This document shows, piece after piece, positions 4,709-54,600 of a stretch of 54,693 bases of DNA. Made by a program: the position numbers and the translations under genes. Numbering within the stretch: position 1 is the stretch's first letter; the number at the start of each line of letters is the position of its first letter. The stretch is taken from the IMG/VR virus record IMGVR_UViG_3300023181_000035, positions 1 to 54,693 of that record. One strand, 5' to 3'. This DNA comes from a virus. Taxonomy: Duplodnaviria; Caudoviricetes. The notes beneath the pieces are model-generated. The model was not told the origin of the DNA. It searched no databases and worked only from the letters and a program-made list of their open reading frames with translations.

Positions 4709-5500
4709 ATGGAAAATAAAGAAAGAAGAAGTGGTAGAGAGAGTCCTTATTTTATAGATAGAGTAGGAGAAAGGTATTTAACTAATCAAGGATATTGGAT
4801 TGAGATTATTAAATGTTTTGGATCCTCAAACTGCTCAGTATCATTTGATTGTAATGGTGTAGTATTAAATAACTTGATATACTCTAATATCAAAAGAGGT
4901 CAAGTAGCTAATCCTTATCATCCCTCTATGTATGGTGTGGGTTATATGGGACAAGGGAAATATGTATCAAGTTTTAATTATATAGAGACAAAAGAATACC
5001 GTCTATGGAAAGACGTCTTAGAAAGATGCTATAATCCAAATTTTCATAAAAAAAGACCTAATTATGCTGATGTAAAAATGCACAGTGATTGGCACAATTT
5101 TCAGAATTTTGCGACTTGGGTTGAGAAAAATTTTAATCATTCTGTAATGGAAGGTTGGTCTATGGACAAAGATCTTAAAGTAAAAGGAAATAAAATCTAT
5201 TCTCCAGAAACATGCATATTTATCCCAATACCAATCAACAATATATTTGTAAAAATAAAAAGAAAATCTGGCTTACCTAGAGGGGTATGTAAGACAAAAA
5301 ATAATAGATATGTTTCAAAGATTAAAACAAACGGCAAAAGTAGAAATTTAGGAACATATGACACACCCGAAGAAGCCTTTCAAGCCTACAAAATAGCCAA
5401 GGAAATAGAGATTAAGAGAATGGCGGATGAATGGCGACCAATAATCGGAGAAATTGTGTACAAAGCCATGTACAACTGGGTTGTGGAAATAAATGATTAA
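4709..5500 (+). CDS. HNH-type homing endonuclease with C-terminal AP2-like DNA-binding domain
   Basis: W..FQNFA.W, DKD(L)KVKGNKIYSPETCIFIP, RNLGTYDTPEEAFQAY; ATG at 4709 preferred over the TTG at 4688. Confidence 0.7.
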   Translation: MENKERRSGRESPYFIDRVGERYLTNQGYWIEIIKCFGSSNCSVSFDCNGVVLNNLIYSNIKRGQVANPYHPSMYGVGYMGQGKYVSSFNYIETKEYRLWKDVLERCYNPNFHKKRPNYADVKMHSDWHNFQNFATWVEKNFNHSVMEGWSMDKDLKVKGNKIYSPETCIFIPIPINNIFVKIKRKSGLPRGVCKTKNNRYVSKIKTNGKSRNLGTYDTPEEAFQAYKIAKEIEIKRMADEWRPIIGEIVYKAMYNWVVEIND

Positions 5501-7844: not shown

Positions 7845-8104
7845 TAATATGAAAGAACTAATACAACAAGACTATAATAAAATAATTGATTTTAGAACAA
7901 ATTGGTTAGAAAAATTAGCATTAAAATATAATTTAACTGAGGCTCAAGTTTTAGAGTTAATTGATTTATGAAAGTAATATACATGGGAACAACTCTCGGA
8001 CTAATCCACGAAATACATCCTGAAACAGCTCAACAAATACTGGCAAAAGGAGAAGTAAAAGAAACAGAAAACAATTTAAAATATATTATAATAAACGAAG
8101 AGAT

Positions 8105-8668
8105 ATGAAAAATAATATAACCAGAGAAGAGTTAAAAAAGATACACGACATTGCTTGTGATACTTGGAAGCCAAAGTTAGCTAAATATGCACAAGAAGAC
8201 CCGTTCAGTGAAACAATAAAATTCACAGAGAAACAAATTAATGAAATGATTAAGGCTTGTACAGATGTTCAATTACCTGTAGTTAAAGAGATATTTGATG
8301 TCCGTGATAGCTGGGAAGATATTAAAACTGTAGAGGATGCAACTAACAAACTAGGTGAAAAAGATGAAGATGTGATCCAGCTTAGAAAATTAGAATCTGT
8401 AGATGGCTTAGCAGATTATATTTTAAATAATCAGATAGCTATTGTTGTAGCTAAAGCTTTAAATGATGGATGGGTAGCTAATTGGGATGATCACAATGAA
8501 TACAAATATTATCCTTGGTTTTATTTGGGTAAAAACTTCCGCTGCAATAGTTGCAACGGTTGGAATTCTAACTCGGATGCATCTTCCCGCCTCTCACTCA
8601 AGTCTAGCGAATTAGCAATATATGCTGGAAAACAATTCAAAGACGTATATGAAAAATTTATGAATTAA
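8105..8668 (+). CDS. DGR target protein 1 (187 aa)
   Basis: Contains VR1 encoding FRCNSCNGWNSNSDASSR; paralogous to 9792..10244 (ALNDGW.ANW...YKYYPWF vs AYNQGK.PDF...YKYTPYF). Confidence 0.85.
   Translation: MKNNITREELKKIHDIACDTWKPKLAKYAQEDPFSETIKFTEKQINEMIKACTDVQLPVVKEIFDVRDSWEDIKTVEDATNKLGEKDEDVIQLRKLESVDGLADYILNNQIAIVVAKALNDGWVANWDDHNEYKYYPWFYLGKNFRCNSCNGWNSNSDASSRLSLKSSELAIYAGKQFKDVYEKFMN
8536..8590 (+). repeat. DGR variable repeat VR1
   Basis: 55-nt ungapped match to TR 8703-8757 with 10 mismatches, all at TR adenines (9 A>G, 1 A>T). Confidence 0.92.
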
Positions 8669-8702
8669 AACAATAAAGGCCTAGTTTTCAGATGAATATT
8701 CC

Positions 8703-8757
8703 CTTCCACTACAATAATTACAACAATTGGAATTCTAACTCGAATACATCATCCCAC
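8703..8757 (+). repeat. DGR template repeat (TR)
   Basis: cttccactacaataattacaacaattggaattctaactcgaatacatcatcccac; intergenic, directly upstream of RT, 21 adenines, 7 AAY codons in the VR frame. Confidence 0.92.
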
Positions 8758-8872
8758 TTCTATTTACTAATATAGAAAACAAAAACCTTACCTCTTGGTA
8801 AAAAATAAAGAATTTAAAAGCTCATTAGTAAAGGAATTGAAAGTGAGCTTATATAAAGAGAGTTACAAGCCT

Positions 8873-9811
8873 ATGAAAAGAGTTGGTAATTTATATCAAA
8901 AAATAATATCAATAGATAATTTAAAAATAGCAGATAAAAAGGCCAGAAAAGGTAAAAGTAATCAGTATGGAGTAAAACAACATTTAAAAATAGAAATTGA
9001 GAATATAGAATCTTTATACGAACTACTGAATCATAATAAGTTTATCACCTCTAATTATCATAAATTTGAAATAAATGAAGGAAAGAAACGAACAATAGCT
9101 AGATTACCGTACTATCCAGATAGAATTGTACATCACGCACTAATTAACTATTTAGAGCCTTTGTTTGTATCAGTGTTTACTTCCGATACATATAGTTGTA
9201 TTAAGAAAAGAGGAGTTCATAAAGCATCTTACAATTTAAGAAAAGCTTTAAAAAATGTACCAGATACAAAATATTGTTTAAAACTAGATATTAAAAAATT
9301 TTATAATTCAATAGATCAAAAAATATTAAAGAGCTTACTCAGAAAGAAAATAAAAGATGTAATGTTATTGAATATGTTAGATGAAATAATAGAATCATAT
9401 GACGAAGGTCTTCCTCTAGGTTCTTTACTTTCACAATTTTTAGGTAATTACTATTTAACTTATTTTGATCATTGGATTAAAGAAGAATTAAAAATAAAAA
9501 ACTACTTTAGATACTGCGATGACTGTGTAATACTTGGTGATAATAAAGAAGATCTGCATGAAGTGTTTTTGAAAGTAGAAAAATATCTTAATAACTTAAA
9601 TCTAGAAGTAAAAGGTAATTGGCAAATTTCCCCTGTTAAAGACAGAAGTATTGACTTTGTAGGTTTTCGGCACTACCATACGCATACATTGTTAAGAAAA
9701 ACGATTAAAAAGAATTATATAAAAAGTAAAAACAAAGAACGTTGGAATGGGTGGTTAATCCACTGTAACTCATTAAATTTAAGAAAAAAGTATGAAAACA
9801 ATGAAAATTAA
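8873..9811 (+). CDS. DGR reverse transcriptase (~312 aa)
   Basis: MKRVGNLYQKI start, PDRIVHHA, LKLDIKKFY, GLPLGSLLSQ (DGR-type SQ), RYCDD catalytic motif, IDFVGF; ATG at 8873 preferred over TTG at 8795. Confidence 0.93.
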   Translation: MKRVGNLYQKIISIDNLKIADKKARKGKSNQYGVKQHLKIEIENIESLYELLNHNKFITSNYHKFEINEGKKRTIARLPYYPDRIVHHALINYLEPLFVSVFTSDTYSCIKKRGVHKASYNLRKALKNVPDTKYCLKLDIKKFYNSIDQKILKSLLRKKIKDVMLLNMLDEIIESYDEGLPLGSLLSQFLGNYYLTYFDHWIKEELKIKNYFRYCDDCVILGDNKEDLHEVFLKVEKYLNNLNLEVKGNWQISPVKDRSIDFVGFRHYHTHTLLRKTIKKNYIKSKNKERWNGWLIHCNSLNLRKKYENNEN

Positions 9812-10244
9812 TGTACCTTCGGGTTATGAAATTGATCAAGAAAAATCCACATTTGAAAATATTGTGTTTAAAGAGACGGTCAAAAATATCAGAGAACGTA
9901 TCCAGTCAATGAAGGATGTTTATGTATTAAATAATACTACTGAAGAAATATTTAAAAAAGCAGTAGAAAATTTAACTTCAGATGAGATAGGTTATAAAAA
10001 AGTAAAATTAATTGTGTCAGCTTATAATCAAGGAAAATTGCCAGATTTTAGTGATGGAACTTACAAGTATACTCCTTATTTCCAAATGAAGGAAAATGGC
10101 TTCCGCTACTATAATTGCAACGATTGGCCTTCTCGCTCGAATTCTTCATCCCGCCTCCTTTTTGTCGGCTCAGAGGCTAAAGAAAATATGTTAGACGCAG
10201 TTGAGAAATTTTTACCTGAATATAAACAATACCAATTAGGATAA
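9792..10244 (+). CDS. DGR target protein 2 (150 aa)
   Basis: Contains VR2 encoding FRYYNCNDWPSRSNSSSR; overlaps the RT 3' end; paralog of target 1 with a different N-terminus. Confidence 0.85.
   Translation: MKTMKINVPSGYEIDQEKSTFENIVFKETVKNIRERIQSMKDVYVLNNTTEEIFKKAVENLTSDEIGYKKVKLIVSAYNQGKLPDFSDGTYKYTPYFQMKENGFRYYNCNDWPSRSNSSSRLLFVGSEAKENMLDAVEKFLPEYKQYQLG
10100..10154 (+). repeat. DGR variable repeat VR2
   Basis: 55-nt ungapped match to TR with 11 mismatches, all at TR adenines (5 A>G, 3 A>C, 3 A>T). Confidence 0.92.
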
Positions 10245-17504: not shown

Positions 17505-17699
17505 TTGGCGCATAAATACAGTAAAATAACGAAAGAATCTGTTTTAAAGCTTTTTTCGCGCGAAAAACAAGTAATAAACAGAAATTACATAGCAAAACAA
17601 TTAAACTGTTCTGTATATAGCGTAAGAATAGCCTTAGAGCAATTAAAAGACGATAATAAAATTAAATTAAGTAATCATGGATATATTAAAAACAATTAA
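17505..17699 (+). CDS. Small winged-HTH DNA-binding protein
   Basis: NRNYIAKQLNCSVYSVRIALEQLKDDNKI HTH pattern; TTG start. Confidence 0.55.
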   Translation: MAHKYSKITKESVLKLFSREKQVINRNYIAKQLNCSVYSVRIALEQLKDDNKIKLSNHGYIKNN

Positions 17700-18666
17700 A
17701 TATTACAACAATCGCCCTGTATTAGTTTTACAAAAACATGAAGTAGCTGATTTTTATCAAATACTCGTAGATATCGAAATACAAGATATTGATTTAGATC
17801 ATATCGCAGAATCTTTCAGAGGTTGTGATGCTTGTATGGTTGGTCATAAATCTACATGTTATTGCGACGAATCAGTTGCAAAAGCCTATGATGTTGTAGA
17901 GCGAATTATCGAGGATTATAAAATAAAAGATTCGCAATTATTTTATGTTCCAGCTAAAGATTTAAAAGATACTCCTTTCGAATGGAGAGAAAACAAAGGT
18001 CTTGTTGATAAAATTAAAGGAAATAAAGATGTTCTTAACGGACTGATTGATATTGTTGCCGAAAATAAGAGCTTGATTAAGCAACAAGAAAAACAATTGT
18101 CTGACAACAAATCAGAAATTTATAAGATGGATGCTATTGTTGAGAACAGAAAATCTTTAACTGAAATGGTAATTAAGGATTACGATAAATTAAAATCAGA
18201 CATCGAAGAATTAGAGTCTAAAAAGGAATTAATTGTTGTTGATTCCGAGGTTAAAATTGAATATTCAGAGTATGAAAAATTACTAAAACGGGATGAAATA
18301 CTCTCTGCTTTGGAAATTGGTGGAGTTGATAATTGGGAATGGTATGGTGAATCACTTAAAGGTATAAATGATGAAGAATAATACAAGAGAATTAAGTGAA
18401 TTAGGCCAAGAAATAAGTAGAGATAAAACAGTACTTCTTCAAATAGCTATTGAATTAGGGTTATTAGAAGATAAATCACTATATCAATATGATTTTACAG
18501 ATTATGGTATATGGGGAAGTAATGATTCTTATGCAATTATTTCACCAACACAAAATACTATAATCAGAATACCTAAAGATGTAAATGAGTTTGAAAATTT
18601 ATCTTTTAAAATAGTAAAGAAATTAAAAGAACATGGATTTGATATTGGTAATTTAACACTATAAAA

Positions 18667-23826: not shown

Positions 23827-24546
23827 ATGGCAAAAACATTCAAAAATATTATAGTTGGTATTTATAAAATAACTTCTCCTTCAGGTAAAATATACGTAGG
23901 TCAATCTAAACACATTGAAAAAAGATTCTACGATTATCAAATAGCTAGGTGTGAACAACAAAGGAGACTTTTCAATTCCTTATTTAAGCATGGCTGGAAA
24001 AACCACATATTTGAAATAATAGAAGAATGTGACAAAGAAGAATTGGATTGCCGTGAACGCTATTGGCAGGATTTTTATGATGTTAAAAGCAGAGAAAAAG
24101 GTTTAAATTGTAAACTTACTGCATGTGGAGATCTAGTAGAAGAAAAAACAATAATTAAAATAAGAAATTTAAACCCTGATCATGTAGGTAAGGGAGTACT
24201 GAAAGGGGAGAAACACCCTAATTGGGGTAGAAAATATAGCGAATTTGAAAGATTTAAACTCTCAGTCTCTAAAGATAAAATAAGTGATGTTGATAAACTA
24301 GTATTATTAGATTCGTTTGTAGAAGGAGATTTGGAAAAACGTTATTCAGCGAGGAATAAAAAGCAAATTCAACTTAAACAGGAAAAGGAAATTCACCATA
24401 AATCAAAGATAATACTAGATACTAATACAGGAGTATTTTACTATAGTTTAAGAGAATTATGTACCCTCTATGGATTTAATTATCACACTTTAAAAAACAG
24501 ATTGAGAGGGGCTTTAAAAAATAAAACTCCTTACATTTACGTTTAA
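23827..24546 (+). CDS. GIY-YIG homing endonuclease with NUMOD3-like motif
   Basis: GIYKITSPSGKIYVGQS, R...Y, ERYW, GLN; GEKHPNWGRKYSE; C-terminal NUMOD1-like HTH. Confidence 0.85.
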   Translation: MAKTFKNIIVGIYKITSPSGKIYVGQSKHIEKRFYDYQIARCEQQRRLFNSLFKHGWKNHIFEIIEECDKEELDCRERYWQDFYDVKSREKGLNCKLTACGDLVEEKTIIKIRNLNPDHVGKGVLKGEKHPNWGRKYSEFERFKLSVSKDKISDVDKLVLLDSFVEGDLEKRYSARNKKQIQLKQEKEIHHKSKIILDTNTGVFYYSLRELCTLYGFNYHTLKNRLRGALKNKTPYIYV

Positions 24547-27907: not shown

Positions 27908-30127
27908 ATGATGGTAGAAAATAAAGGAGTAGAGGTATATGATATTGAGACGTTAAAAAACTGTTTCACTTACACTGGAATTAACAGAGATACTAAAGCA
28001 GTAATTAAATTTGTTATTTGGGGAGAAGTAAATGATTTAGAAAAACTATTACTACATTTATCTTTACTTAAAGGTCAAATCGGTTTCAACAATATTAATT
28101 TCGATTACCCTGTTCTCCATTATATAATCAAAGAAAAGAAAAAACTGTTAAAATTAACAGGAGATGAAATTGCTAAATTAATTTATGCAAAAGCTCAATC
28201 TGTTATCAGTCAAGAATATTCTGCTGTAAAAGAAGCTGAAGTAATTATTCCACAATTAGATTTATTTCGTATCTGGCACTATGACAACAAGGCCAGGATG
28301 ACAGGATTAAAGAAGCTCGAGATAGCAATGTATTATCCTAATGTACAGGATATGCCTTACTCACATGATCAGGAAATTACAAGTTGGTCGCAAGTAGAAG
28401 AGATATTAGATTATAATGAAAATGATGTTTCGGCCACGCAAGCATTCTATGAATTAACTAAAGATAAGTTAGATTTAAGAAAAGGATTAAAAGAAAAATA
28501 TGGCTTAGAATGTTTAAATTATCCAGATAGTAAAATCGGAGAACAGTTGATGTTAAAACTGTATTGTCATTATACTAATCAGGATGAACAAGTAATCAAG
28601 AGAAAGAGAACTTTTAGAAATCTATTTAAATTTTCAGAATGTATTCCTGACTATATTAAATTTACTACTCCAGAATTCAATCAATTATTAGATTACATTA
28701 AAAGTATTGAAGTAACAGAACTTAAAGAATCTTTTAAATATGGATTCGAATATAATGGTTTTACTTTTGACCTAGGAACAGGCGGAATACACGGATGTAT
28801 TAAGGCAGGAGTTTACGAAAGTACTGATAATGAGATAGTTGTGGATGCAGATGTTGCTTCACTTTATCCAAGCCTCGGTATTACTTTAGGTTTATATCCA
28901 GAACATTTGGGAGATGTTTTTTCTAAAATATATGAAGATGGAATTGTTAAACCAAGATTAGAAGCCAAAAAGAATAAAGATATGGTGATGGCTGATGGTT
29001 TCAAACTTTCGGCCAACTCAGTTTATGGAAAATCTAACAGTCAATACAGTTTTCTTTGTGATCCGCTTTATACTTTGAAAACTACTCTTGCTGGTCAATT
29101 AGCTTTATGTATGTTATCTGAAATGTTAATAACAAGAGTTCCTGATTTAATTATGCTCCAAATCAATACGGACGGTTTGACAGTTAAAATTCCTATAGAA
29201 CATAAAAGACTTTATTGGGAAATTTGTCAAGAATGGGAGAAACAGACTAATTTAGTATTAGAATATGTTGCTTATTCACAAATGATCATCAGAGATGTAA
29301 ATTCGTATATCGCCGTAACGCAGAAAACTAATAAGGTTAAGTATAAAGGTGCTTTTAAGCCAAATTCAGAGATGATAAAGGATGGGGAATACCATAAGTC
29401 GTTTAGCCAAGGAATCGTTGCTCTAGCCGTCTCTAAATACTTTTTGGAAAATATACCTGTTGAAGATACAATTAAAGCACATGATAATATTTATGATTTC
29501 TGTAAAACTTTTAATGCTTCTCATGGATGGTCATGCGATATTTCAGATGTCGAATATAAAGATATTTCTTATTTAGAAGCTGTTCAGAAATTAACTGAAG
29601 CTGGATGGTATGAAGCACACACAGAAGGATTTTTTATACCTCCTAATGGTGGAAATATGGCGGGAATGCAATTATTAGAAGAAGGGAATAAAACCAAATT
29701 ATATAAAAATGTCACAAAGCAACAGAAAACAAACAGATATTATATATCGACTAATGGTAAAACCTTCCGTAAAACAAAAGATGGGAAGATTATCGAAATT
29801 GAAGCTGGTGGAAATTTAGTAACTATTTTTAATAAATACCATGAGAAATCTATTAATGAATATTATATAGATTATGATTATTATATAAAAGAATGTTTTA
29901 AGATAATTCATATCATTGATGGCACAAATGAAAGATTAGAAATAGAGAGAAAAGAATTAGCTTTACAAAAGAAGAAAGATAAAGAAGAAGAAAATTATAT
30001 TAAATTTTGCGTTGATAAAATACCCACAACACTTCAGTATCAATCTTACAATAGGGAATGGTTACAGGAGAAATACGGAATTCCTGGGGAAATAAAACCT
30101 TCTAAAACAAAAATCATATTACAGTAA
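27908..30127 (+). CDS. polB: Family B DNA polymerase
   Basis: YDIET, GFNNINFDYP and YNENDV exonuclease motifs; DVASLYPS, KLSANSVYGK and NTDG polymerase motifs. Confidence 0.92.
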   Translation: MMVENKGVEVYDIETLKNCFTYTGINRDTKAVIKFVIWGEVNDLEKLLLHLSLLKGQIGFNNINFDYPVLHYIIKEKKKLLKLTGDEIAKLIYAKAQSVISQEYSAVKEAEVIIPQLDLFRIWHYDNKARMTGLKKLEIAMYYPNVQDMPYSHDQEITSWSQVEEILDYNENDVSATQAFYELTKDKLDLRKGLKEKYGLECLNYPDSKIGEQLMLKLYCHYTNQDEQVIKRKRTFRNLFKFSECIPDYIKFTTPEFNQLLDYIKSIEVTELKESFKYGFEYNGFTFDLGTGGIHGCIKAGVYESTDNEIVVDADVASLYPSLGITLGLYPEHLGDVFSKIYEDGIVKPRLEAKKNKDMVMADGFKLSANSVYGKSNSQYSFLCDPLYTLKTTLAGQLALCMLSEMLITRVPDLIMLQINTDGLTVKIPIEHKRLYWEICQEWEKQTNLVLEYVAYSQMIIRDVNSYIAVTQKTNKVKYKGAFKPNSEMIKDGEYHKSFSQGIVALAVSKYFLENIPVEDTIKAHDNIYDFCKTFNASHGWSCDISDVEYKDISYLEAVQKLTEAGWYEAHTEGFFIPPNGGNMAGMQLLEEGNKTKLYKNVTKQQKTNRYYISTNGKTFRKTKDGKIIEIEAGGNLVTIFNKYHEKSINEYYIDYDYYIKECFKIIHIIDGTNERLEIERKELALQKKKDKEEENYIKFCVDKIPTTLQYQSYNREWLQEKYGIPGEIKPSKTKIILQ

Positions 30128-30288: not shown

Positions 30289-31392
30289 ATGAATAAGCCA
30301 ATAAAGACCCATCAACAGTTTATAACAGACCTTAACAGAGTACACCCTAATAGAGACTGGCAAGTAATAGGAGAATATGAACATAATAAAAAACCCTTAT
30401 TATTAAGAGATAAATATGGAGATTGTTTAATACCTCCAAATTGTTTACTACAAAGATCTAAGCCTTCTGTAAAAACAGCTATAGATAAAACAGAATACAC
30501 AATTAATAAATTTAAAGAACTTTGGGGAGATAGGTACGACTATTCTAAGTTTGTATATTTAGGTGCTCGAAAAAAGTCGATAATAATTTGTAAACTTCAC
30601 GGTGAGTTTCCACAAGATGCTAACATGCATTTATCAGGAAAATGTGGGTGCCATAAATGTGCAAATGATGCAGTATCTTTAAGAGTTAGAAGTAATACCG
30701 AAGAGTTTATTGAGAAGGCAGTTAATAAATACGGAAAAGATAAGTTTTCTTTTAATAGTGCAATATATAAATCAGCTACCGAAGATGTGGTGATAACTTG
30801 TAAAGTACATGGAGATTTTGAACAAACACCTAATAGATTTTTAAATGGTCAAATTTGTACAAAATGTAGTTATAAAGAAAGCACAGCTAATTTTCACACA
30901 TTAAAAAAGAAGAGAAACAATTGTATTCTATATGTTATAGAATGTTATAACGATGAGGAAAGATTTATTAAAATAGGGGTTACTACTAGGAATATAACCG
31001 CCCGATTTAAAGATAACTATGACATGCCTTATAAGTATACGGTACTTAGAGAATTCAGATATGCTAATATAAATGCGCCAGATGCAATTGAGACCCATCT
31101 TTTAAAATTTACAAGAGGCGCAAGTTATATTCCTAAAATAAAATTCAGCGGACAAACAGAAGCTAGGAACATGTGCATAAAAAGTACCTTATTAGACTTA
31201 TTTGATGTTTATTGTGATGAACTATACTATATTGCTTTTATTAATTTCACTAAAGCATATTCGGGAGTTTTTGATGTAAGCCTACTAAACTCTGACAGTT
31301 ATTCTAAATTAGAGATTGAAACAGTAATGAAAGGATATGAAATTCATAAAAATTTTGAAAATAAACAGCTTACTACTTGCACAGTAAATTAA
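30289..31392 (+). CDS. Putative homing endonuclease: DUF723-like zinc-ribbon repeats plus GIY-YIG-like (T5orf172-type) domain
   Basis: Repeated YDYSK..Y.......IICK.HG.F.Q....HL.G..C..C; LYVIECY....FIKIGVT....RF. Confidence 0.7.
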   Translation: MNKPIKTHQQFITDLNRVHPNRDWQVIGEYEHNKKPLLLRDKYGDCLIPPNCLLQRSKPSVKTAIDKTEYTINKFKELWGDRYDYSKFVYLGARKKSIIICKLHGEFPQDANMHLSGKCGCHKCANDAVSLRVRSNTEEFIEKAVNKYGKDKFSFNSAIYKSATEDVVITCKVHGDFEQTPNRFLNGQICTKCSYKESTANFHTLKKKRNNCILYVIECYNDEERFIKIGVTTRNITARFKDNYDMPYKYTVLREFRYANINAPDAIETHLLKFTRGASYIPKIKFSGQTEARNMCIKSTLLDLFDVYCDELYYIAFINFTKAYSGVFDVSLLNSDSYSKLEIETVMKGYEIHKNFENKQLTTCTVN

Positions 31393-41401: not shown

Positions 41402-42064
41402 TTAATCTGTTATTTCTACTACCCAACTATGCATGGCTTGATAAACCTTTTCTCCAATCAAGGGTCGCCAATAATTTGCTTTTTCTTTAATATAAGCTTC
41501 TTTAGCGGTTTTATATGCTTGGAAGGCTTCTTCAGATGTGTCAAAAGTTCCTAAATATTTAGTCTTACCGTCTATTTTCATTGAGGTCTTATATCTGTTT
41601 TGGTTTTTTAAATAGTGGACTCCAATAGGGTATTTTCCTCGTATTTTATTGTTTTTAACAAAAAGGGAATTAAGTTCTTGCGGGACAAAACAACAAGTTT
41701 CAGGAGAATAGATTTTGTTACCTTTCACTAAGATATCTTTGTCAAGATGCCAATCAGACATATAAGTCTTAAAATTATCATTATACCAGGAAATAAACGA
41801 TTGAGCATTCTTCCACTCTTCACACAATTCTACTTGTATATAAGTTTTATCCTTAATAAGTCCTTTATTACTGTAACATCTGTACTTAATACCTTTCAAA
41901 ATATGTTTTGCCCTTTTATCCCCATAACTTCTCTTATTATGTATAGTTTTTTCTAAATTAATATATTTTTTAATTATTAAAAGTATTTGGTCTTCATAGT
42001 TTTCTACTACTTTATTAATTCCCAGCTCTTTAATTTTTGTTTCTATTAATAACTTTTTATTCAT
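41402..42064 (-). CDS. HNH-type homing endonuclease with AP2-like domain (paralog of 4709..5500)
   Basis: DKDILVKGNKIYSPETCCFVP, YLGTFDTSEEAFQAY; ATG at 42064. Confidence 0.7.
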   Translation of the reverse strand: MNKKLLIETKIKELGINKVVENYEDQILLIIKKYINLEKTIHNKRSYGDKRAKHILKGIKYRCYSNKGLIKDKTYIQVELCEEWKNAQSFISWYNDNFKTYMSDWHLDKDILVKGNKIYSPETCCFVPQELNSLFVKNNKIRGKYPIGVHYLKNQNRYKTSMKIDGKTKYLGTFDTSEEAFQAYKTAKEAYIKEKANYWRPLIGEKVYQAMHSWVVEITD

Positions 42065-47054: not shown

Positions 47055-48152
47055 TTATTTGCTAAAATATGTCGAACTGGTTATATTTAATTCTAAGTTT
47101 GTTAATAAAGGCATTATATTTCTTTTTATATCCCTATTTATTTTTGAGCAAAGCGGTTGAAAATTACTCCAATGATTCAGTAGGTATAATTCTTCTTCAT
47201 TTCTTGCTTTTGTGATAGGTATAATATGGTCTAAATCCCATGAGCAATTATAATTTAGTTCGGAACAAATGTTACCATGATTTTCCCAAGTCATCCAGTT
47301 TAAAAACTGAGATTCAATATGCTTTTTGAATTCTTGTATTGTACATTGTAATATTTCTTCTGTTCTTTTTGATTTAATTACTTTTCCTTTTGATGTAGAT
47401 TTTATACTTTTTCTTATTAGCCCTTTAATGTTGTTTACTAACATATACTCCTTATCATGCTTCCAAGTGTTGTTGTACTCTTCTCTCTTTTTCTCCCTCA
47501 AATAATCTTTGTTTTCCTCCCTCCATTTTTTATTTGACAACGCTATTATTTCTTTATTATTTTCTCTGTAGGTTGAATCACAAATTTTACAATAACAATT
47601 ATGGCCTGTTTTGGTGCCTTTATTTTTATTAAAATTCTCTAATGTTTTAGTCTCTTTGCATTTAGGGCATTCTTTTAAATTATCATATGGGATTATTTTA
47701 TCTTTGCTTTCAATTAAAGTAATAACATATACCTTATTGCAGTCTTTACATTGAGAGTCAAATCCATCTTTTTGTATACTAGCTTTGAAAAATTCTGAAG
47801 TGGGTTTTGCAATATTGCATTTTCTGCATACTTTATGACTTACTAATTGTTTTTCTTTATTTTTTATTAATTGAGCATCTTGCTTGGTACAAACTTTACA
47901 TCTCGAATTATAACCAGTGGTTTTGTGTTTAGTTTTTGAAAAATCTTTTAATTCCTTTGTAAAACCACAACCAGAGCAAGTCTTAATTCCTCCAATAGGT
48001 ATTATTTTTTCTTTAGCGTTTCTTTCTTCATCTTTTATCTTAGTACATGATTTACATACAGAAGTCACGCCATATTTACCTCTTTTTTGGCTATAATATT
48101 CTTCAATTGTTTTTTCTGTATTACAATAAGTGCAGATTTTTACTAAGCTCAT
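47055..48152 (-). CDS. HNH endonuclease with four CxxC...CxxC zinc-ribbon repeats
   Basis: Four K.C..C...K....F.........C..C repeats; FKKHIESQF...MTWENHG...WDLDHIIP...LNHWSNFQPL...N. Confidence 0.82.
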   Translation of the reverse strand: MSLVKICTYCNTEKTIEEYYSQKRGKYGVTSVCKSCTKIKDEERNAKEKIIPIGGIKTCSGCGFTKELKDFSKTKHKTTGYNSRCKVCTKQDAQLIKNKEKQLVSHKVCRKCNIAKPTSEFFKASIQKDGFDSQCKDCNKVYVITLIESKDKIIPYDNLKECPKCKETKTLENFNKNKGTKTGHNCYCKICDSTYRENNKEIIALSNKKWREENKDYLREKKREEYNNTWKHDKEYMLVNNIKGLIRKSIKSTSKGKVIKSKRTEEILQCTIQEFKKHIESQFLNWMTWENHGNICSELNYNCSWDLDHIIPITKARNEEELYLLNHWSNFQPLCSKINRDIKRNIMPLLTNLELNITSSTYFSK

Positions 48153-48291: not shown

Positions 48292-51200
48292 TTAATTACT
48301 ATCTTTATTCATAAATTGCCACATTGGTATACTCCAGAAATCATTTGATTGCACTTCTTGATAGAAAACCTTGCTATGAAACGCCTTTCCTGGGTCTGCA
48401 AGTTGATTCAGTGAATTTGAAAATGGTGCTATTTTACCAACACTACTTAAAACTTTACCTTCTTTAAAAGAATTTTCCTCTAACAATTTGTTTAAAGATA
48501 AAATTTGATCAAAAGCTTGCAAGGGCTGTTTTACTGTTTGCCAATAATTGTTTGCTATACCTGTATTTGCAGCATGTAATTCTCCAACAAGTCTATAAGT
48601 AAGCAAATTAGCCATTTGTAAACTCCAATTTTTACGCTCGGGATCGTCATCGGCTAGGCCTCTAAGTAACATAGAAATCAACATAACTGTGTTAATGAAT
48701 AGCAAATCGACACCTAAACGCTTGATCGAAGACTTACGAAATTCTGATTTTTCAATACCGCTTACAACTTCTTCTTTTAAGTCTTGCAATTCTTGATTTT
48801 CTTCAGGAGTTCTATTATTTATAGCTTCTAATTCTGTTATCCTTTGATCTTGTTCTGTGAAGTTGCCATTATATTGGTTCTTAAATGCCTCTATAAAGTT
48901 ATTGCCATTTTGCTTCCATTCCTTTACAACATCTCCAAATAAGCGGTATATTCCTGAGTAAGATCCTCCTTCATATTGTCTAGATTGGGTGTTAAATCCT
49001 TCAGCCTTAAATCTCTCCGTGAAAGTCACAATCATATAACCTTTAAACATCATTAAGAAATTTAATAGAAAGTGGCGATGAGCGGCTGTTTTATCTTCCG
49101 AACTGATCTGCTGGTCAATTCTAACATTAATATTTTTTATCTGAATTCTTAAATCACCTGTAAAACGATTTATTTCTCTGTCTAATTCTTCATCCGAATA
49201 CTCATTACCATTTGTATCTCTTAATAATGCTTTTAATTTTTCTCTATTAAAACTCACTATACCATCATCTGTAACATCTTGGAAATTATAAATTACATCA
49301 TTTTCATTTGACCATTTTTCTTTTATTTCTGCGTTTGTTATTTTTAAATTCTCAATTCTTTGATTACGCTGAAAATCTGTAAATTTAACAACTTTTCCAT
49401 TAACAATTCTAAAATCATTTAAAACTGTAAGCATTCCTTTACCATACAGAGGGTAATTGGTAGCTTGGTAAAGCATCATAGAGCTTTTTGAAAGAAATCT
49501 AGGCAGTGCACCAAATTTTGCACCATACAAACTATTTTCTAATTCAAATGCTCCATAATATTGTCCTAGGGAATTTAATTTAGATTTTGTTCTTACATGA
49601 TTTATCTCCATCATAGCCTTACCAACTTGGTCATGGTAGATAGCACTTCCTCTTTTAAATGAATCATTGTTAATATATTGACCAACTATTCTTTCAACAG
49701 TTTGTTTTGATTTAGCTGTTAAATAAGCTGTGGCTGGCACTATTACACTTCCCCCAAGGCCTTTGAACCTTAAAAAACTACCTAATCCATTGATTACCTT
49801 ACCACCATCTATTTTGCCGACAAAAGGAACGTCAATTGTAGCCGTACTAGCTTGTTTAATACCGAAAAAATCATTATCCATCGAACTATCAAGAGCTTTA
49901 AACCTATTAGTAGTAGTTCCTATCTTCCCATCAGCATTTGTTCTTGTAGAAGCTTTATCTATAATAGCCATAGCATCTCCAAAATATTTTACTCTGGAAG
50001 CATAGATATTCGCAGCTTTATTTGTCATAGCAAGTCCATGGAAAATATCTTCTGTAATATCTGTTTGATTTTCTAATCTCGCATAAAAAGGTTTTGGAAT
50101 ACTTTTGTTTGCAGTTCCTAATCTATTATCCCCCTGTATCTGGTCATCCTCAGTATATGTGGTTATGTTCTCAAAAGCATCTTTTATAGACTGCCCTGAC
50201 AAACTTTTTAATCCTCCTAAATAGCGTTCAATTCCTTGCTTTCTGATTTGCGGAGTTAAATAGATATTATAACTCGAATCTCCGTCCATGAGTGCAATTT
50301 GATCTTTTCTCAGCTTTATTGTAGCTTTGTAGACTTCGAATAGTTTTTCATTTTTTGTGGCCGAAACATAATTACCTTCATTATCTCTTGTAACTATGCC
50401 AAATAAAGTTTTAAATTCTGAATTTTCATATTTAGTAGCATTAGGCTGTTGGCTTCCCATCCCAGAATTAACAATATAATCAGAGTTTATTTGAGAAGTA
50501 TCTTCATCTTGAAAACTGTAATTAGGTTTTACTTCTACATATTGGTATTGTCCCTGCTCTAAATTATTTAGAATTTCGCTTACAGGTTTATCACTATTCA
50601 AATCACTTTGAAATTCTACATATCCTTGCGGTGTATATCTTCTATAATAAGGCAATAATCTGCTTTCTGCAAAACTTCTTACAAACTGATTTTTAGTTGT
50701 TGGTTCAAGTAAATCTTCTTTAGACAGATTTTGTTCTTCTAATTTTCTCATTACAGATTTAGGAAGAGTTTCTCTAAAACCGTTTATGTAACTCTCTATG
50801 CTATCTTGCATTTGTTGAGTTGTTTTTCGGTTTTTGGCCGTCATATTCGCTTTAGCTTCTTCCACGATCTTATTGGTTAAAATCTCAAGCTCAACTCCTG
50901 CTGTATCTGTTGTATCAAGTCCTAAATCTAAAAGTCTTTTATTCCAGGACTCATTTACTCCCGAAACTCCCTCTACAAGATTTTCAATATCTTCAGAAGT
51001 AATATCTGCTGTTAATTCTCTTGCTTCGGCGTAAAGTTCTTCTAAATTCTCTTGGATATCCCTCACTGTTTGTCTGGCCAATTCAGGCATATTCTCAACA
51101 TCAGTTTCTGATGGATTTGAAGATTTAGTATAAACTTTAATAATGTTTTTAAGTCTGAAACTATTTGCTTTAATATCTTCTATTAAGTCTTCATTTCCTC

Positions 51201-54200
51201 CTATGTCTTCAAGCTTATCTACTAACCCCTTATTATTACCAAAACTATCCCAGAAATCGCTTGAAAAGCCTATTTGAGAGTTTAATTCTAGTGCTTGTAT
51301 TTGAGTTTGTCTGTTGTCTTTACTTAGAATTAAATCTATGAAAGATTGTGGTAATTGAGAACTTCCTTCAGGTGTTGTATTATCATAAGAGTTGTCTAAT
51401 TTATTTAAATCTAACGCTTGTCTTGAAGGCGCAGGTAATTGATCAATGTCGCCAATAGCTTCAATGATTGTTTTTCCTTCTTCGTTTTGGCTGTATTTTA
51501 AACCTTCTTTTAGATTTCCAAGTTCATCAACAAAGCTCTTAAGTTGTTTCCTTTCTAAATTTAAGGTGTTTAACTGTTGTATGTCTTGTCCGCTAAGTAA
51601 AGTTAAATCTATTTTACCATTAGCATCTCTCGCTCTTTCTGTTATTCTTCTTTTATCGGCATTAAGTCCTCGAAGAATGTTTTGAGTGTTTTTAGAAATA
51701 TTTAGATTGACGAATTTTTGTTCTAATTCAGCATAATATTCGTCTTTCATTCGGCGCTCAGACTCATTTTCATTTAGCTTTCTTGTAGCTTCATAAATAC
51801 TGTCCTTTTGCTCATCTGACCATTCTAATGTACCTTTACTTCTTTTATTTAGAATTTCTTCATCTTTAAGTTTAGTGTCGGTAAATACTTTTTTGTACTC
51901 TTGCAAGAAGTTTTCATCTAACTGTTTTTGATAACCTGCAATATCTCTTTCTGACAAGAAATATCCGTCTTTGACAAATGTAGAAATAACTTTTTCGTCA
52001 AACCCATTATCGTAAATAACTTTTTGCCAGTTTTTAATTTGATTGTGATCTGCGCGAGATCCTTCAGAAATCATTCCTGTTTTAACAGTTGCAAAAAGAG
52101 ACATTAAAGCATCTGGACTTGATTCTAATGTCCCAAAAGTGGAGCCTATCCAGCTAATATCGTTCTCCGCACTCACTGTCCAACGCATCATAGCCTCTTT
52201 TTCTCTAGCACTTAAGCCCCTGTCAATCGTAACGGCATTAATTTGCTTCTCAATACTTTGTTGTTGAGTTACGTCTCTTTGTGCTTTTAAATTAGATATA
52301 TTTTGAATTGAATCTCCAATGCTTTTGGATAGTGTTTGCCAAACAGTTAGTTTATTTAAAGTGGTGTCGTCTTCTATCAGCTTTTTAATTACACCTAAAG
52401 TGTCTGTTGTTTCCCCTATAAGGTTTTTAAAGATCATAACTTCTTCTTGTGATAAGTCGTAATTTTTTCCTTTATCTTGTGAATCTTTTATCGCGGCGAA
52501 AAGTCTATTAACATTATTATCTGCAATTCTGGCCACTGTGGCCACAGCATGAACTTCTAATTTATCGTCAAGTTCTTTTTGTACAGCTAAAAGTCTGTTT
52601 TTATTAAATTGAGATCCTTGTTGATTTCTGGATAAATCGTCATTTTCCCTACTTAAAATATCAATTTGTTTTTTAGTTTCTTCCGCGATTCTTTTAGCAT
52701 TTGTAGAGGTATCTAAAGAATAAAATCTTTTTCGATTGTTATCTAAGTTATCTAATTGTAATCCACTGATATCACCTGTATTTAAAATATCTTGAATATC
52801 TGTAATAATTCCATTTAAATCAGAAATGTATTGAGGTTTGAAATAAGAAGCAATATCTTGAAAAAACTGTTGGATAAATTGAATTGCGCTATTAAAGAAA
52901 TTTTGAGTTGTTTCAGAAACAGGCGCTGATTGTTGAACAGCATTTAAAGCTATCTTTCCTAAAACTTCTTTACGAACAGCCATTTCAGTTTCTTCTGCAT
53001 TATATTCTCTACTGTAAACTTCTCTGTAAGTTTGCGCAAATTCTTTATATTCTTCCGACTTATCTATGTTTCTAAGTACGTTTTCAAGTCTTTCTTGTGG
53101 AAGTGCTTCTACTATAAAGTGAATTGTTTCTTCGGTTAAGTTTTCTAGTGTTTCTGCGCCTGTTTGAAAAGCAATAACTCTTTGTGCAATATCTGCTAAA
53201 GCCTCAGCCTGGATAGGTACAGAATTTCTAATTTGAAATTTCTCAGTATAATTTGTAATTGAAGTTACAGTTACACCCATGTTTTTAAGAAGTTTATATA
53301 AAGATAGTTTAACTTCATCTTCTGTTTTTACAGTTTCTGGTTGTTCTTCCTCTGAAGTTTCTCTGTATAAAGGTACGTTTCTTTTATATTCTCTTTCCGC
53401 GAAAATCTCTTCATAATTCTCATAACGAGCTTTAAGTTCATCAATTGATAGTTCGTCTAATTCTTGCGCATCAATTATTTGTCTTTCTCCACTTTTAGTA
53501 TAAACTGCTGTTTTACCTAAATTCTCATTAAGTCTTACAGTTGTTCCAGAAACCTCAATTCCTAAAGAACCTAAATTTGTCATTGCCGAATTTGCCAATA
53601 AATCTAAAGAAACATTTTTCTTCATTTCTGAACTTCCTTCACTCTGAAGCAAATATTCATTACCTATTTTCACTCTGGTTTCAGCCATTGTTCCCTCTAA
53701 AATAGATGCTTGTGTAAAACCATTAACAGAAGACTTATCTACGTTTTTGGTTACAGACATTACAGAGGTGAATTCATTATTTGAAGTGAACCCTAATTCT
53801 ATTTTTTGGCCGTCTACAGCTTCTTTTAATGCGGATTTTAAAGAGCTGAATTGGTTTCCATTTACTTCATGAACGAATTGAATACCGCTTTCATTTATTG
53901 AAGGATTACTTACAAAATATTGAAACTGTTGTATGTCTTTCGCCGAACCTAAAACATGAATTTGATCACTATTAGGAACAACAATTTCATCCATATTGTT
54001 ATTGGTAGTGTAAGATACAATTACGCCATCATACCCTTCATTTTCTAATTCTTCGCTGGTTTTAGGAGCTATAATAGTTTTAGAATTTCTATATAAAGGA
54101 TTGGTTATATTTAGAATTACATTTTTTACCGCGCCTTTTTTACCTGTATCCATATTAATTGAATACCCTTCAGCTTTAAAAAAGTTATCTGTAAAATAAA

Positions 54201-54600
54201 ATCCTTGGCCAAAATCCCCTATAGTTTTATTTCTGTCACTTTCTGTACCTATTTGAGTGGCATCAAAGTCTTCAAAATCTCTTTTTGTGCCATGATAAAC
54301 CACGTCTTTTAATTGACTTTGAGGAAATATCTGAGATAAATATTCTTGATATTGTTCAGCCGTACCTATATTAGATAAATCTTGGTTTTGATTATAAATA
54401 GAAGAAACTCTGGGTGTAATTTCTTTTACTGTTTTATCTATTTTCGGCGAATAAATGTTTTTGTATATTTCTAACGCTTTTTCAGTAGTCTCAACAAATG
54501 GATTTGAAGCAACACTTATAAAAAGTCTACTTTCATTTCCATTTTGATCTAATACTTTTGTTATTATTCCCTCCGAATTTCTATCAACTTTACAAGCCAT
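48292..54600 (-). CDS. Very large (2102 aa) putative internal virion/ejection protein with N-terminal ADP-ribosyltransferase-like domain
   Basis: VYHGT...FEDFD, GQGFYFT, GYDGVIV, DEIVV (H-Y-E ART-like); degenerate zincin-like EETIH; long helical body and hydrophobic C-terminal segments. Confidence 0.65.
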   Translation of the reverse strand: MACKVDRNSEGIITKVLDQNGNESRLFISVASNPFVETTEKALEIYKNIYSPKIDKTVKEITPRVSSIYNQNQDLSNIGTAEQYQEYLSQIFPQSQLKDVVYHGTKRDFEDFDATQIGTESDRNKTIGDFGQGFYFTDNFFKAEGYSINMDTGKKGAVKNVILNITNPLYRNSKTIIAPKTSEELENEGYDGVIVSYTTNNNMDEIVVPNSDQIHVLGSAKDIQQFQYFVSNPSINESGIQFVHEVNGNQFSSLKSALKEAVDGQKIELGFTSNNEFTSVMSVTKNVDKSSVNGFTQASILEGTMAETRVKIGNEYLLQSEGSSEMKKNVSLDLLANSAMTNLGSLGIEVSGTTVRLNENLGKTAVYTKSGERQIIDAQELDELSIDELKARYENYEEIFAEREYKRNVPLYRETSEEEQPETVKTEDEVKLSLYKLLKNMGVTVTSITNYTEKFQIRNSVPIQAEALADIAQRVIAFQTGAETLENLTEETIHFIVEALPQERLENVLRNIDKSEEYKEFAQTYREVYSREYNAEETEMAVRKEVLGKIALNAVQQSAPVSETTQNFFNSAIQFIQQFFQDIASYFKPQYISDLNGIITDIQDILNTGDISGLQLDNLDNNRKRFYSLDTSTNAKRIAEETKKQIDILSRENDDLSRNQQGSQFNKNRLLAVQKELDDKLEVHAVATVARIADNNVNRLFAAIKDSQDKGKNYDLSQEEVMIFKNLIGETTDTLGVIKKLIEDDTTLNKLTVWQTLSKSIGDSIQNISNLKAQRDVTQQQSIEKQINAVTIDRGLSAREKEAMMRWTVSAENDISWIGSTFGTLESSPDALMSLFATVKTGMISEGSRADHNQIKNWQKVIYDNGFDEKVISTFVKDGYFLSERDIAGYQKQLDENFLQEYKKVFTDTKLKDEEILNKRSKGTLEWSDEQKDSIYEATRKLNENESERRMKDEYYAELEQKFVNLNISKNTQNILRGLNADKRRITERARDANGKIDLTLLSGQDIQQLNTLNLERKQLKSFVDELGNLKEGLKYSQNEEGKTIIEAIGDIDQLPAPSRQALDLNKLDNSYDNTTPEGSSQLPQSFIDLILSKDNRQTQIQALELNSQIGFSSDFWDSFGNNKGLVDKLEDIGGNEDLIEDIKANSFRLKNIIKVYTKSSNPSETDVENMPELARQTVRDIQENLEELYAEARELTADITSEDIENLVEGVSGVNESWNKRLLDLGLDTTDTAGVELEILTNKIVEEAKANMTAKNRKTTQQMQDSIESYINGFRETLPKSVMRKLEEQNLSKEDLLEPTTKNQFVRSFAESRLLPYYRRYTPQGYVEFQSDLNSDKPVSEILNNLEQGQYQYVEVKPNYSFQDEDTSQINSDYIVNSGMGSQQPNATKYENSEFKTLFGIVTRDNEGNYVSATKNEKLFEVYKATIKLRKDQIALMDGDSSYNIYLTPQIRKQGIERYLGGLKSLSGQSIKDAFENITTYTEDDQIQGDNRLGTANKSIPKPFYARLENQTDITEDIFHGLAMTNKAANIYASRVKYFGDAMAIIDKASTRTNADGKIGTTTNRFKALDSSMDNDFFGIKQASTATIDVPFVGKIDGGKVINGLGSFLRFKGLGGSVIVPATAYLTAKSKQTVERIVGQYINNDSFKRGSAIYHDQVGKAMMEINHVRTKSKLNSLGQYYGAFELENSLYGAKFGALPRFLSKSSMMLYQATNYPLYGKGMLTVLNDFRIVNGKVVKFTDFQRNQRIENLKITNAEIKEKWSNENDVIYNFQDVTDDGIVSFNREKLKALLRDTNGNEYSDEELDREINRFTGDLRIQIKNINVRIDQQISSEDKTAAHRHFLLNFLMMFKGYMIVTFTERFKAEGFNTQSRQYEGGSYSGIYRLFGDVVKEWKQNGNNFIEAFKNQYNGNFTEQDQRITELEAINNRTPEENQELQDLKEEVVSGIEKSEFRKSSIKRLGVDLLFINTVMLISMLLRGLADDDPERKNWSLQMANLLTYRLVGELHAANTGIANNYWQTVKQPLQAFDQILSLNKLLEENSFKEGKVLSSVGKIAPFSNSLNQLADPGKAFHSKVFYQEVQSNDFWSIPMWQFMNKDSN

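Follow-up and report, generated by a model that had tools for sequence, protein, structure and literature searches.

In the diversity-generating retroelement (DGR) of phage BPP-1, a template repeat (TR) of 134 nt serves a single target, Mtd, which is the trimeric C-type-lectin tip of the tail fibre and carries its variable repeat (VR) at the C-terminus, and the accessory protein Avd is essential. Here we describe a compact DGR cassette in IMG/VR virus record IMGVR_UViG_3300023181_000035, in which one TR and one reverse transcriptase (RT) gene stand between two small target genes, designated T1 and T2 (order T-TR-RT-T). The DNA analysed, which we call the window, is the complete record, a linear viral contig of 54,693 bases with a completeness rating of 38%.

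The closest described cassettes are found in published surveys. In the target list of Roux et al. (2021; PMC8144416) the label PC_00007 occurs at least 1,694 times, often in pairs of primary and secondary targets. One contig in that list, the source of a related locus that we call L012, has RT gene 2649767958 and target genes 2649767959 and 2649767960; both targets are PC_00007 proteins classed as 'Phage_other', with relative VR positions of 0.63 and 0.75. Where the main text of that survey deals with annotated VR regions, all are C-type lectins, and the uncharacterised ones are supposed to be new lectin variants (PMC8144416). In the tabulated systems of Wu et al. (2018; PMC5758913), the two targets of entry t120 (NZ_AMSG01000002.1), 157 and 124 aa long, are in tandem, and entry t121 is from Pedobacter arcticus A12; both are filed as 'CLec3, category f4', a poor fit. 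In row t122 of the same tables, a single TR serves a tail-type target and also a small one at a distance of 36 kb. For Quimbyvirus, the account of Benler et al. (2021; PMC8008677) places the second target, which is non-structural, among methyltransferases and a nuclease and proposes a role in phage-host conflict. The Hankyphage paper does not mention a second target.

The TR of the window lies at positions 8703-8757 on the plus strand, in the non-coding gap between T1 and the RT gene, upstream of the latter and 34 bases beyond the end of T1. It consists of 55 nt (21 A, 16 C, 15 T and 3 G) and aligns without gaps to VR1 (8536-8590, plus strand), which encodes T1 residues 145-162 (FRCNSCNGWNSNSDASSR), and to VR2 (10100-10154, plus strand), which encodes T2 residues 104-121 (FRYYNCNDWPSRSNSSSR). 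VR1 differs from the TR at 10 of the 21 adenines (nine A-to-G and one A-to-T) and VR2 at 11 of them (five A-to-G, three A-to-T and three A-to-C). Thus all 21 mismatches fall at TR adenines, and none of the 34 non-A positions is altered in either VR. An earlier note, made from the sequence alone, had reported the gapless alignments at these coordinates and the same counts, and our realignment reproduced both. When the alignment is extended, the similarity breaks off at both borders of the 55-base unit. The scan for further VRs that the note had proposed was run over all 54,693 bases with the TR as a pattern, reading A as N and allowing up to three mismatches; only three places matched (the TR, VR1 and VR2), and 100 dinucleotide-preserving shuffles of the window gave no match at all. 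Since the scan thus covered the entire record, the available sequence has no third VR.

Both VRs are in frame with the reading of the TR, which in the VR frame translates as F H Y N N Y N N W N S N S N T S S H and includes seven AAY codons. Twelve TR codons have an adenine at the first or second position that could be altered by A-to-N change, and a stop codon can be reached from none of them, giving a capacity of about 1e10 to 1e11 protein forms per target. The full count of possible forms is 1.75e11 for each target; with the last adenine fixed, it would be one quarter as large.

The source DNA was found in leaf-litter and rhizosphere metagenomes, in 13 runs from 11 studies, one of the runs being possibly the source itself. 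The closest relative is a contig designated L009, whose T1 is 87% identical to that of the window. Between the window and L009 the TR is identical (0/55 differences), VR1 differs at 10/54 bases and VR2 at 16/54, every difference being at a TR-adenine site, while the divergence is 0.7-1.1% for T2 outside the VR and 1.5% for the RT gene. With an unchanged TR and VRs that have changed only at TR-adenine sites, homing must have taken place since the two lineages split; the element has been recently active. Contigs of three other runs (X2, X3 and X5) have differences in VR1 at least 10, at least 4 and at least 4 in number, and each one listed is at a TR adenine. One more change among the run contigs is at 8536, and this base is therefore taken to lie just outside the true repeat.

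The 3' ends of the repeats show a further regularity. Both VRs have CCCGC followed by CTC where the TR has CCCAC followed by TTC; the last TR adenine (8756) is G in the VRs, and after 8756 a C in the VRs stands against a T in the TR. As the window and L009 have G at position 8756 in each of their four VRs, this position is probably part of a fixed VR-end element rather than of the mutagenised stretch. Most of the 11 related loci compared likewise have a G in the VR against an A in the TR at the 3' end of the repeat, although the ends in L012 were out of register. The candidate initiation of mutagenic homing (IMH) element, CCCGCCTC, is at 8586-8593 (plus strand) in VR1 and at 10150-10157 (plus strand) in VR2, and its TR counterpart, CCCACTTC, is at 8753-8760. 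If the element is modelled on that of BPP-1, this difference between the VR and TR ends would correspond to the distinction between IMH and IMH*, and would give homing its direction.

The RT gene (8873-9811, plus strand) encodes 312 aa from the ATG at 8873 (MKRVGNLYQKI...), which is the most likely start, in preference to the upstream TTG at 8795. The earlier note had placed next to the TR an RT with GLPLGSLLSQ and YCDD, and both motifs are indeed present in the translated open reading frame (ORF), which is of full length; the former fits the GxxxSQ pattern expected for the motif-4 region. It matches the Pfam profile RVT_1 (E 1.5e-19) and phrog_1423 (E 7e-103). The best match among PDB sequences is 8ub7_A (328 aa, 'Reverse transcriptase', E 5.8e-43), which we take to be the BPP-1 enzyme bRT; no retron-type or group II intron RT scored better than 3e-14. 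At the DNA level, the nearest named relatives are RT genes of crAss-like gut phages, at 65-71% over 8-15% of a 5-kb query. The window RT is 58% identical to that of L012, which is listed as DGR_clade_1 with an adenine bias of 100% in the tables of Roux et al. (2021; PMC8144416). These similarities support the assignment of the window RT to the DGR lineage.

In the interval that separates TR from RT gene, at 8784-8868 (plus strand), there is a putative structured RNA resembling the Rfam motif RT-17 (RF03020). Its score in cmscan is 38.7 bits (E 2.7e-6), below the gathering threshold of 40.4. At the equivalent place in one related locus, L087, RT-17 scores 46.3 bits, above gathering; 20 related loci were scanned, and the remaining 19 gave no match at that level. 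The motifs RT-1 to RT-19 are described by Weinberg et al. (2017; PMC5737381) as occurring near RT genes, and in the part of that paper dealing with RT-10, this motif sits between TR and RT in BPP-1 and a role in priming is suggested.

In the mechanism that we envisage, an RNA spanning the 55-nt TR and the RT-17-like spacer would be copied by the adjacent RT, which would misread the template adenines, and the mutagenised cDNA would then replace VR1 and VR2. What gives the process its direction is probably the GC-richer VR end CCCGCCTC, absent from the TR, where CCCACTTC stands in its place, and the structured spacer may have a role in priming. The A-only relation between TR and VRs, the type of RT, the in-frame AAY codons and the changes between strains at TR-adenine sites all bear out the interpretation as a DGR that the earlier note had offered, and we regard it as highly probable that the cassette is an intact, recently active DGR of the phage-borne DGR clade 1 type.

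The two target genes, T1 (8105-8668, plus strand, 187 aa) and T2 (9792-10244, plus strand, 150 aa), are on either side of the TR and RT, with the start of T2 overlapping the RT stop by 20 bases. They had been proposed as paralogues, and this is confirmed by BLASTP (31% identity, E 4e-7) and by a single family profile that matches both, T2 at an E of 5.5e-38. Both match phrog_11581, T1 at 3.6e-19 and T2 at 5.4e-4. Residues 67-187 of T1 are 46% identical (E 3e-34) to a 155-aa protein of L012, relative to which T1 has an extra N-terminal helical part of about 60 residues. The L012 ORF (1106-1573) is identical to the sequence printed for gene 2649767960 (PMC8144416). By these matches, T1 and T2 can be assigned to the PC_00007/phrog_11581 family of Roux et al. 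The VR is placed at about 0.63-0.77 of the protein length in the targets of the window and of L012, short of the C-terminus. Neither T1 nor T2 has an N-terminal hydrophobic stretch, and their grand averages of hydropathy are -0.65 and -0.75; both are predicted to be small, soluble, hydrophilic proteins.

Among 130 candidates, 71 are homologues of T1 at E<=1e-3. Many of these are exactly 187 aa long and are encoded on contigs of 135-143 kb, while others, at about 150 aa, are more like T2. Emticicia sp. is the source of one, and Bacteroidota records (e.g., P0070) also contain members of the family. In the family alignment, a core KALNxGW..W..NEYKYYPWF and a tail SRLCFKSSELAIYAGKQF are conserved, and an unconserved block coincides exactly with the VR. 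A tblastn search of 50,697 phage records with T1 gave no match, and a search of phage records with the L012 homologue gave two weak ones, in LoVEphage and BT-TP2. Pfam searches with 38 family members gave isolated sub-threshold matches only (e.g., DUF7338, 17.9 bits against a cut-off of 27), and NCBIfam gave nothing useful for the targets and the small flanking ORFs. The weak homologue in Bacteroides phage LoVEphage (L089:3417-4001; 28% identity, E 9e-4) adjoins genes for a DNA methyltransferase and a PAPS reductase, and lies apart from the RT/tail-collar-fibre pair of that phage (PMC8525569).

Two observations on variation around T1 were made in passing. Relative to window positions 8099-8196, L009 has 853 extra bases, which match an HNH endonuclease gene (phrog_953; L009:2734-3492) directly upstream of its T1, and the N-terminal part of T1 is 9.7% diverged between the window and L009, against about 1% for the RT and T2. 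The pattern resembles an insertion polymorphism of a homing endonuclease, accompanied by gene conversion close by. In addition, run X3 has a contig, 2,510 bases long at a depth of 7.8, that joins window position 8325 (about codon 74 of T1) to 10246 (the start of an exonuclease gene), skipping 1,920 bases; a co-occurring strain may lack the TR-RT-T2 block or have a different one.

The AlphaFold2 (AF2) model of T1 has a mean confidence (pLDDT) of 93.8 and consists, in order, of a helical N-terminal part, a long helix, a hairpin (134-140 and 146-153) and two C-terminal helices; in this model the VR residues 145-162 are on the second strand of the hairpin and the loop after it. The model of T2 has a pLDDT of 83.8, with the VR part below 50. 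Foldseek comparison of both models with the PDB gave no match at E<=1e-3, and a VIA-wide comparison with the PDB gave best Z scores of 4.7 (T1) and 4.1 (T2), nothing above noise, although a non-match does not prove a different fold. No lectin, immunoglobulin (Ig) or tail structure was matched in the fold searches of either model against the PDB, and the family profile found nothing better than an E of 0.063 among PDB sequences. Searches of BFVD gave five matches at E<=1e-3, to uncharacterised phage proteins only, and those of the ESM Atlas gave only viral clusters without names.

A scan of viral contigs gave 198 relatives among 316 candidate stretches, of which the best 80 were kept, corresponding to 63 distinct loci at 90% identity of the first target. 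TR/VR pairs were detected as repeats of at least 36 bases with at least 24 non-A matches and at least four mismatches, all at A. Such A-only pairs are present on the gene strand in 73 of the 80 loci, and 68 have two or more; on the opposite strand, used as a control, weak pairs only were found, in 5 of the 80 loci. The T1/T2 family is almost always linked to a DGR, and its members are usually paired. The TR of the window (55 nt) compares with a median of 76 and a range of 37-86 over 150 pairs in relatives. The commonest layout is T-T-TR-RT (41 of 80 loci), followed by T-T-T-TR-RT (13); six loci resemble the window in having a target behind the RT (L009, L010, L011, L018, L026 and L036). The T-TR-RT-T order that had been pointed out is thus present in the window, but it is a minority layout of the family, and the novelty implied by two targets flanking one RT did not hold, as two-target cassettes of this family are common and are included in published surveys.

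The neighbouring genes in the window, all on one strand, encode methyltransferases, a protein matching a 'superinfection exclusion' PHROG, a 3'-5' exonuclease, ribonucleotide reductase, DnaB, DNA polymerase and primase. No tRNA genes were found in the window, and its small flanking ORFs have no Pfam or NCBIfam match. The flanks of the relatives contain 225 ORFs in 145 clusters, and representatives of 124 clusters were scanned, with 21 short or opposite-strand ORFs set aside. Tail and connector PHROGs were matched by none of the 124. Primase, helicase, exonuclease, RecT, SSB, ParB, methyltransferase and HNH profiles were matched many times, and small terminase, endolysin and integrase once each; in one scan batch, 63 of 108 representatives had no match at E<=1e-8. 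The context and the hydrophilicity of the targets fit the class 'Phage_other' and argue against a tail-fibre role, although they bear on that role rather than on the site of action.

In 36 of the 63 distinct related loci, the gene next after the RT encodes a conserved protein of 98-105 aa (phrog_19665, no Pfam match), for example at L012:3143-3439 (plus strand), L014:2687-2983, L019:5424-5720 and L044:6212-6508. The L014 copy, the only one for which it was computed, has an isoelectric point of 9.5. From its linkage, this protein is a possible accessory factor of the related cassettes. An accessory protein of the Avd or HRDC type is not universal among DGRs; in the published account of the zeta crAss-like phages, Avd is present in only two (PMC12386605).

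What the targets do is less clear than how they are diversified. We infer that T1 and T2 are diversified binding proteins, other than tail fibres, that take part in some phage-host interaction different from classical receptor binding. A competing explanation, which we consider rather unlikely but worth serious attention, is that they are parts of the virion, such as small receptor-binding adaptors or decoration proteins, encoded apart from the tail genes, and that the DGR serves host-range switching as in BPP-1. In the published accounts at hand, the experimentally studied phage DGR targets are all receptor-binding (PMC10743442, PMC8144416), and there are Bacteroidales phages in which a tail-type target and a small target far from it share one TR, as in row t122 of Wu et al. 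(2018; PMC5758913) and in rows of the Roux et al. list that combine PC_00002 with PC_00007. The T1/T2 family and the CLec3 VRs of tail fibres, moreover, have in common a VR 3'-end motif, (V)GSRL(C)F. Comparison by hhalign of the family with the C-terminus of a crAss-like lectin tail protein aligned just 26 columns around (V)GSRL at the VR end, with a probability of 0.5%. As (V)GSRL is encoded by the VR-end element, the shared motif may mirror a DNA-level requirement of the RT lineage rather than a common fold. Set against virion parts are the lack of any tail match among the 124 scanned flanking-gene clusters, the replication and modification genes that are the same-strand neighbours in the window, the listing of the family by Roux et al. 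as 'Phage_other' and not 'Phage_struct' (PMC8144416) and, as weak evidence, AF2 models that match no tail, lectin or Ig structure.

A more specific proposal, which we put forward as speculation and think improbable as it stands, is that the PC_00007 proteins represent a third DGR scaffold, neither lectin nor Ig: small, soluble and helical, with the variable residues on a beta-hairpin and loop. Such proteins would be made with the early and replication genes and would act inside the infected cell rather than in receptor binding by the virion, perhaps as a paired long and short adaptable binder of variable host factors (e.g., defence proteins) or in superinfection exclusion. If this were true, phage DGRs would have an intracellular, 'antibody-like' use.

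Returning to the cassette as an active DGR, several points weigh against that interpretation or limit it. The TR/VR detector admits mismatches only at A and was checked by the opposite-strand control alone, so that 'A-only' in the 73 loci is a property of the filter. The changes in VR1 are skewed to G (9/10), more so than those in VR2, and G is also the commonest replacement in the relatives (1117/1943 over the 150 TR/VR pairs); this excess of G may be due to selection or to a bias of the RT. The evidence for activity comes from assembled contigs compared between strains rather than within a population, and the X2 contig may be from the same phage as L009 and so not independent. Finally, Avd (PF05635) has no match in the window at E<=10, and the phrog_19665 protein has no homologue there. 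Since the record is only 38% complete, an accessory factor could lie elsewhere in the phage.

A rival explanation is that the cassette is a fossil, with repeats that record past DGR activity in an element now dead in this phage. In its favour, no Avd or other accessory gene is seen in the 54.7-kb fragment, and a comparison of assembled contigs does not extend to standing variation. We nevertheless consider a fossil very unlikely. The RT is full length with its motifs intact, neither VR has accumulated a single non-A mismatch, and the TR is identical in L009 while VR2 differs at 16/54 bases between T2 flanks that differ by about 1%, which requires homing after the lineages split. We give next to no credence to divergence without any retroelement, either ordinary divergence of three paralogous repeats or a deaminase-type process, for although nine of the 10 VR1 changes are A-to-G, the direction of adenine deamination, VR2 also has A-to-T and A-to-C changes, the unchanged copy is the non-coding one beside the RT, 21 mismatches out of 21 at A with 0/34 elsewhere are unexpected under neutral divergence, and the same architecture recurs in 73 of the 80 related loci.

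Elsewhere in the window, and in one of the related records, we noted some features that are separate from the cassette. There are five homing-type endonuclease genes in the 54.7 kb (HNH, GIY-YIG and endonuclease VII-like), at 4709-5500, 23827-24546, 30289-31392, 41402-42064 (minus strand) and 47055-48152 (minus strand), the last with repeated zinc-ribbon-like matches to several PHROGs. An ORF at 48292-54600 (minus strand; 2,102 aa) matches phrog_37651, 'virion structural protein' (E 6e-234), and marks the change to the opposite-strand module. The DNA polymerase (27908-30127) is about 33% identical to those of Cellulophaga phage phi14:2 and others, and on this basis the phage has no close named relative. 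In the 234-aa ORF at 17677-18381, the last 45 or so residues match phrog_6234, 'host RecBCD nuclease inhibitor' (E 4.5e-17). In NC_055889.1, the annotated coding sequence of the crAss-like tail protein beside the DGR RT has an in-frame stop under table 11 (L008:3218-3220), about 100 codons before its end, which may reflect stop-codon recoding or read-through.

As a DGR, the cassette adds little, the element type, the small paired targets and the non-structural class having been covered by earlier surveys. It is of value because it represents a large and little-studied class of targets in a clean and compact form that is evidently active, and it could conveniently serve as a model. What is known of phage DGR function is almost wholly based on tail fibres, and the identification of a ligand for a target pair encoded in a replication module would test whether phages use hypermutation for ends other than host recognition.

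The cassette shares with BPP-1 the TR, VR and adjacent RT, the A-specific mutagenesis, the abundance of AAY codons in the TR, a VR end whose sequence departs from that of the TR and a putative structured RNA in the TR-RT interval; unlike BPP-1, it has two small non-tail targets and a 55-nt TR, and no Avd was found. The crAss-like gut phages (cr53_1 and others), as far as the published descriptions cover them (PMC7290462, PMC12386605, PMC11054128), have the nearest named RT genes and often lack Avd, but what they diversify are large proteins of the tail or tail fibre, encoded in the structural module and ending in a C-terminal lectin domain. In one crAss-like relative, a large tail protein annotated 'similar to sulfatase, major tropism determinant' is beside the RT. 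Quimbyvirus, like the window, has a two-target phage DGR, and the window cassette likewise adjoins methyltransferase genes. According to the published description, however, one of the targets diversified in Quimbyvirus is structural, three frames are needed to encode its RT, which is split, and C-type lectin domains are reported in both of its targets (PMC8008677).

Systems t120 and t121 of Wu et al., as tabulated (PMC5758913), resemble the window cassette in having small targets and a TG-TR-RT layout, with no Avd listed, and their hosts are Bacteroidetes; the VR motif of t121, ...GSGVGFSY...VGSRLVFPTSEIA, agrees with the family consensus. They differ in being in bacterial genome records, probably as prophages, and their filing under CLec3 contrasts with AF2 models of T1 and T2 that have no lectin match. 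The PC_00007 cassettes of Roux et al. are alike in having two small paralogous targets per TR, a 100% A bias, a viral setting and the same target family. The L012 cassette among them differs from that of the window in its order (T-T-TR-RT against T-TR-RT-T) and in a 98-aa gene behind the RT that the window lacks, and the window is from a phage of about 140 kb from leaf litter or rhizosphere. The element type is thus one that has already been catalogued, and the window cassette differs from it by a minority gene order and a short TR.

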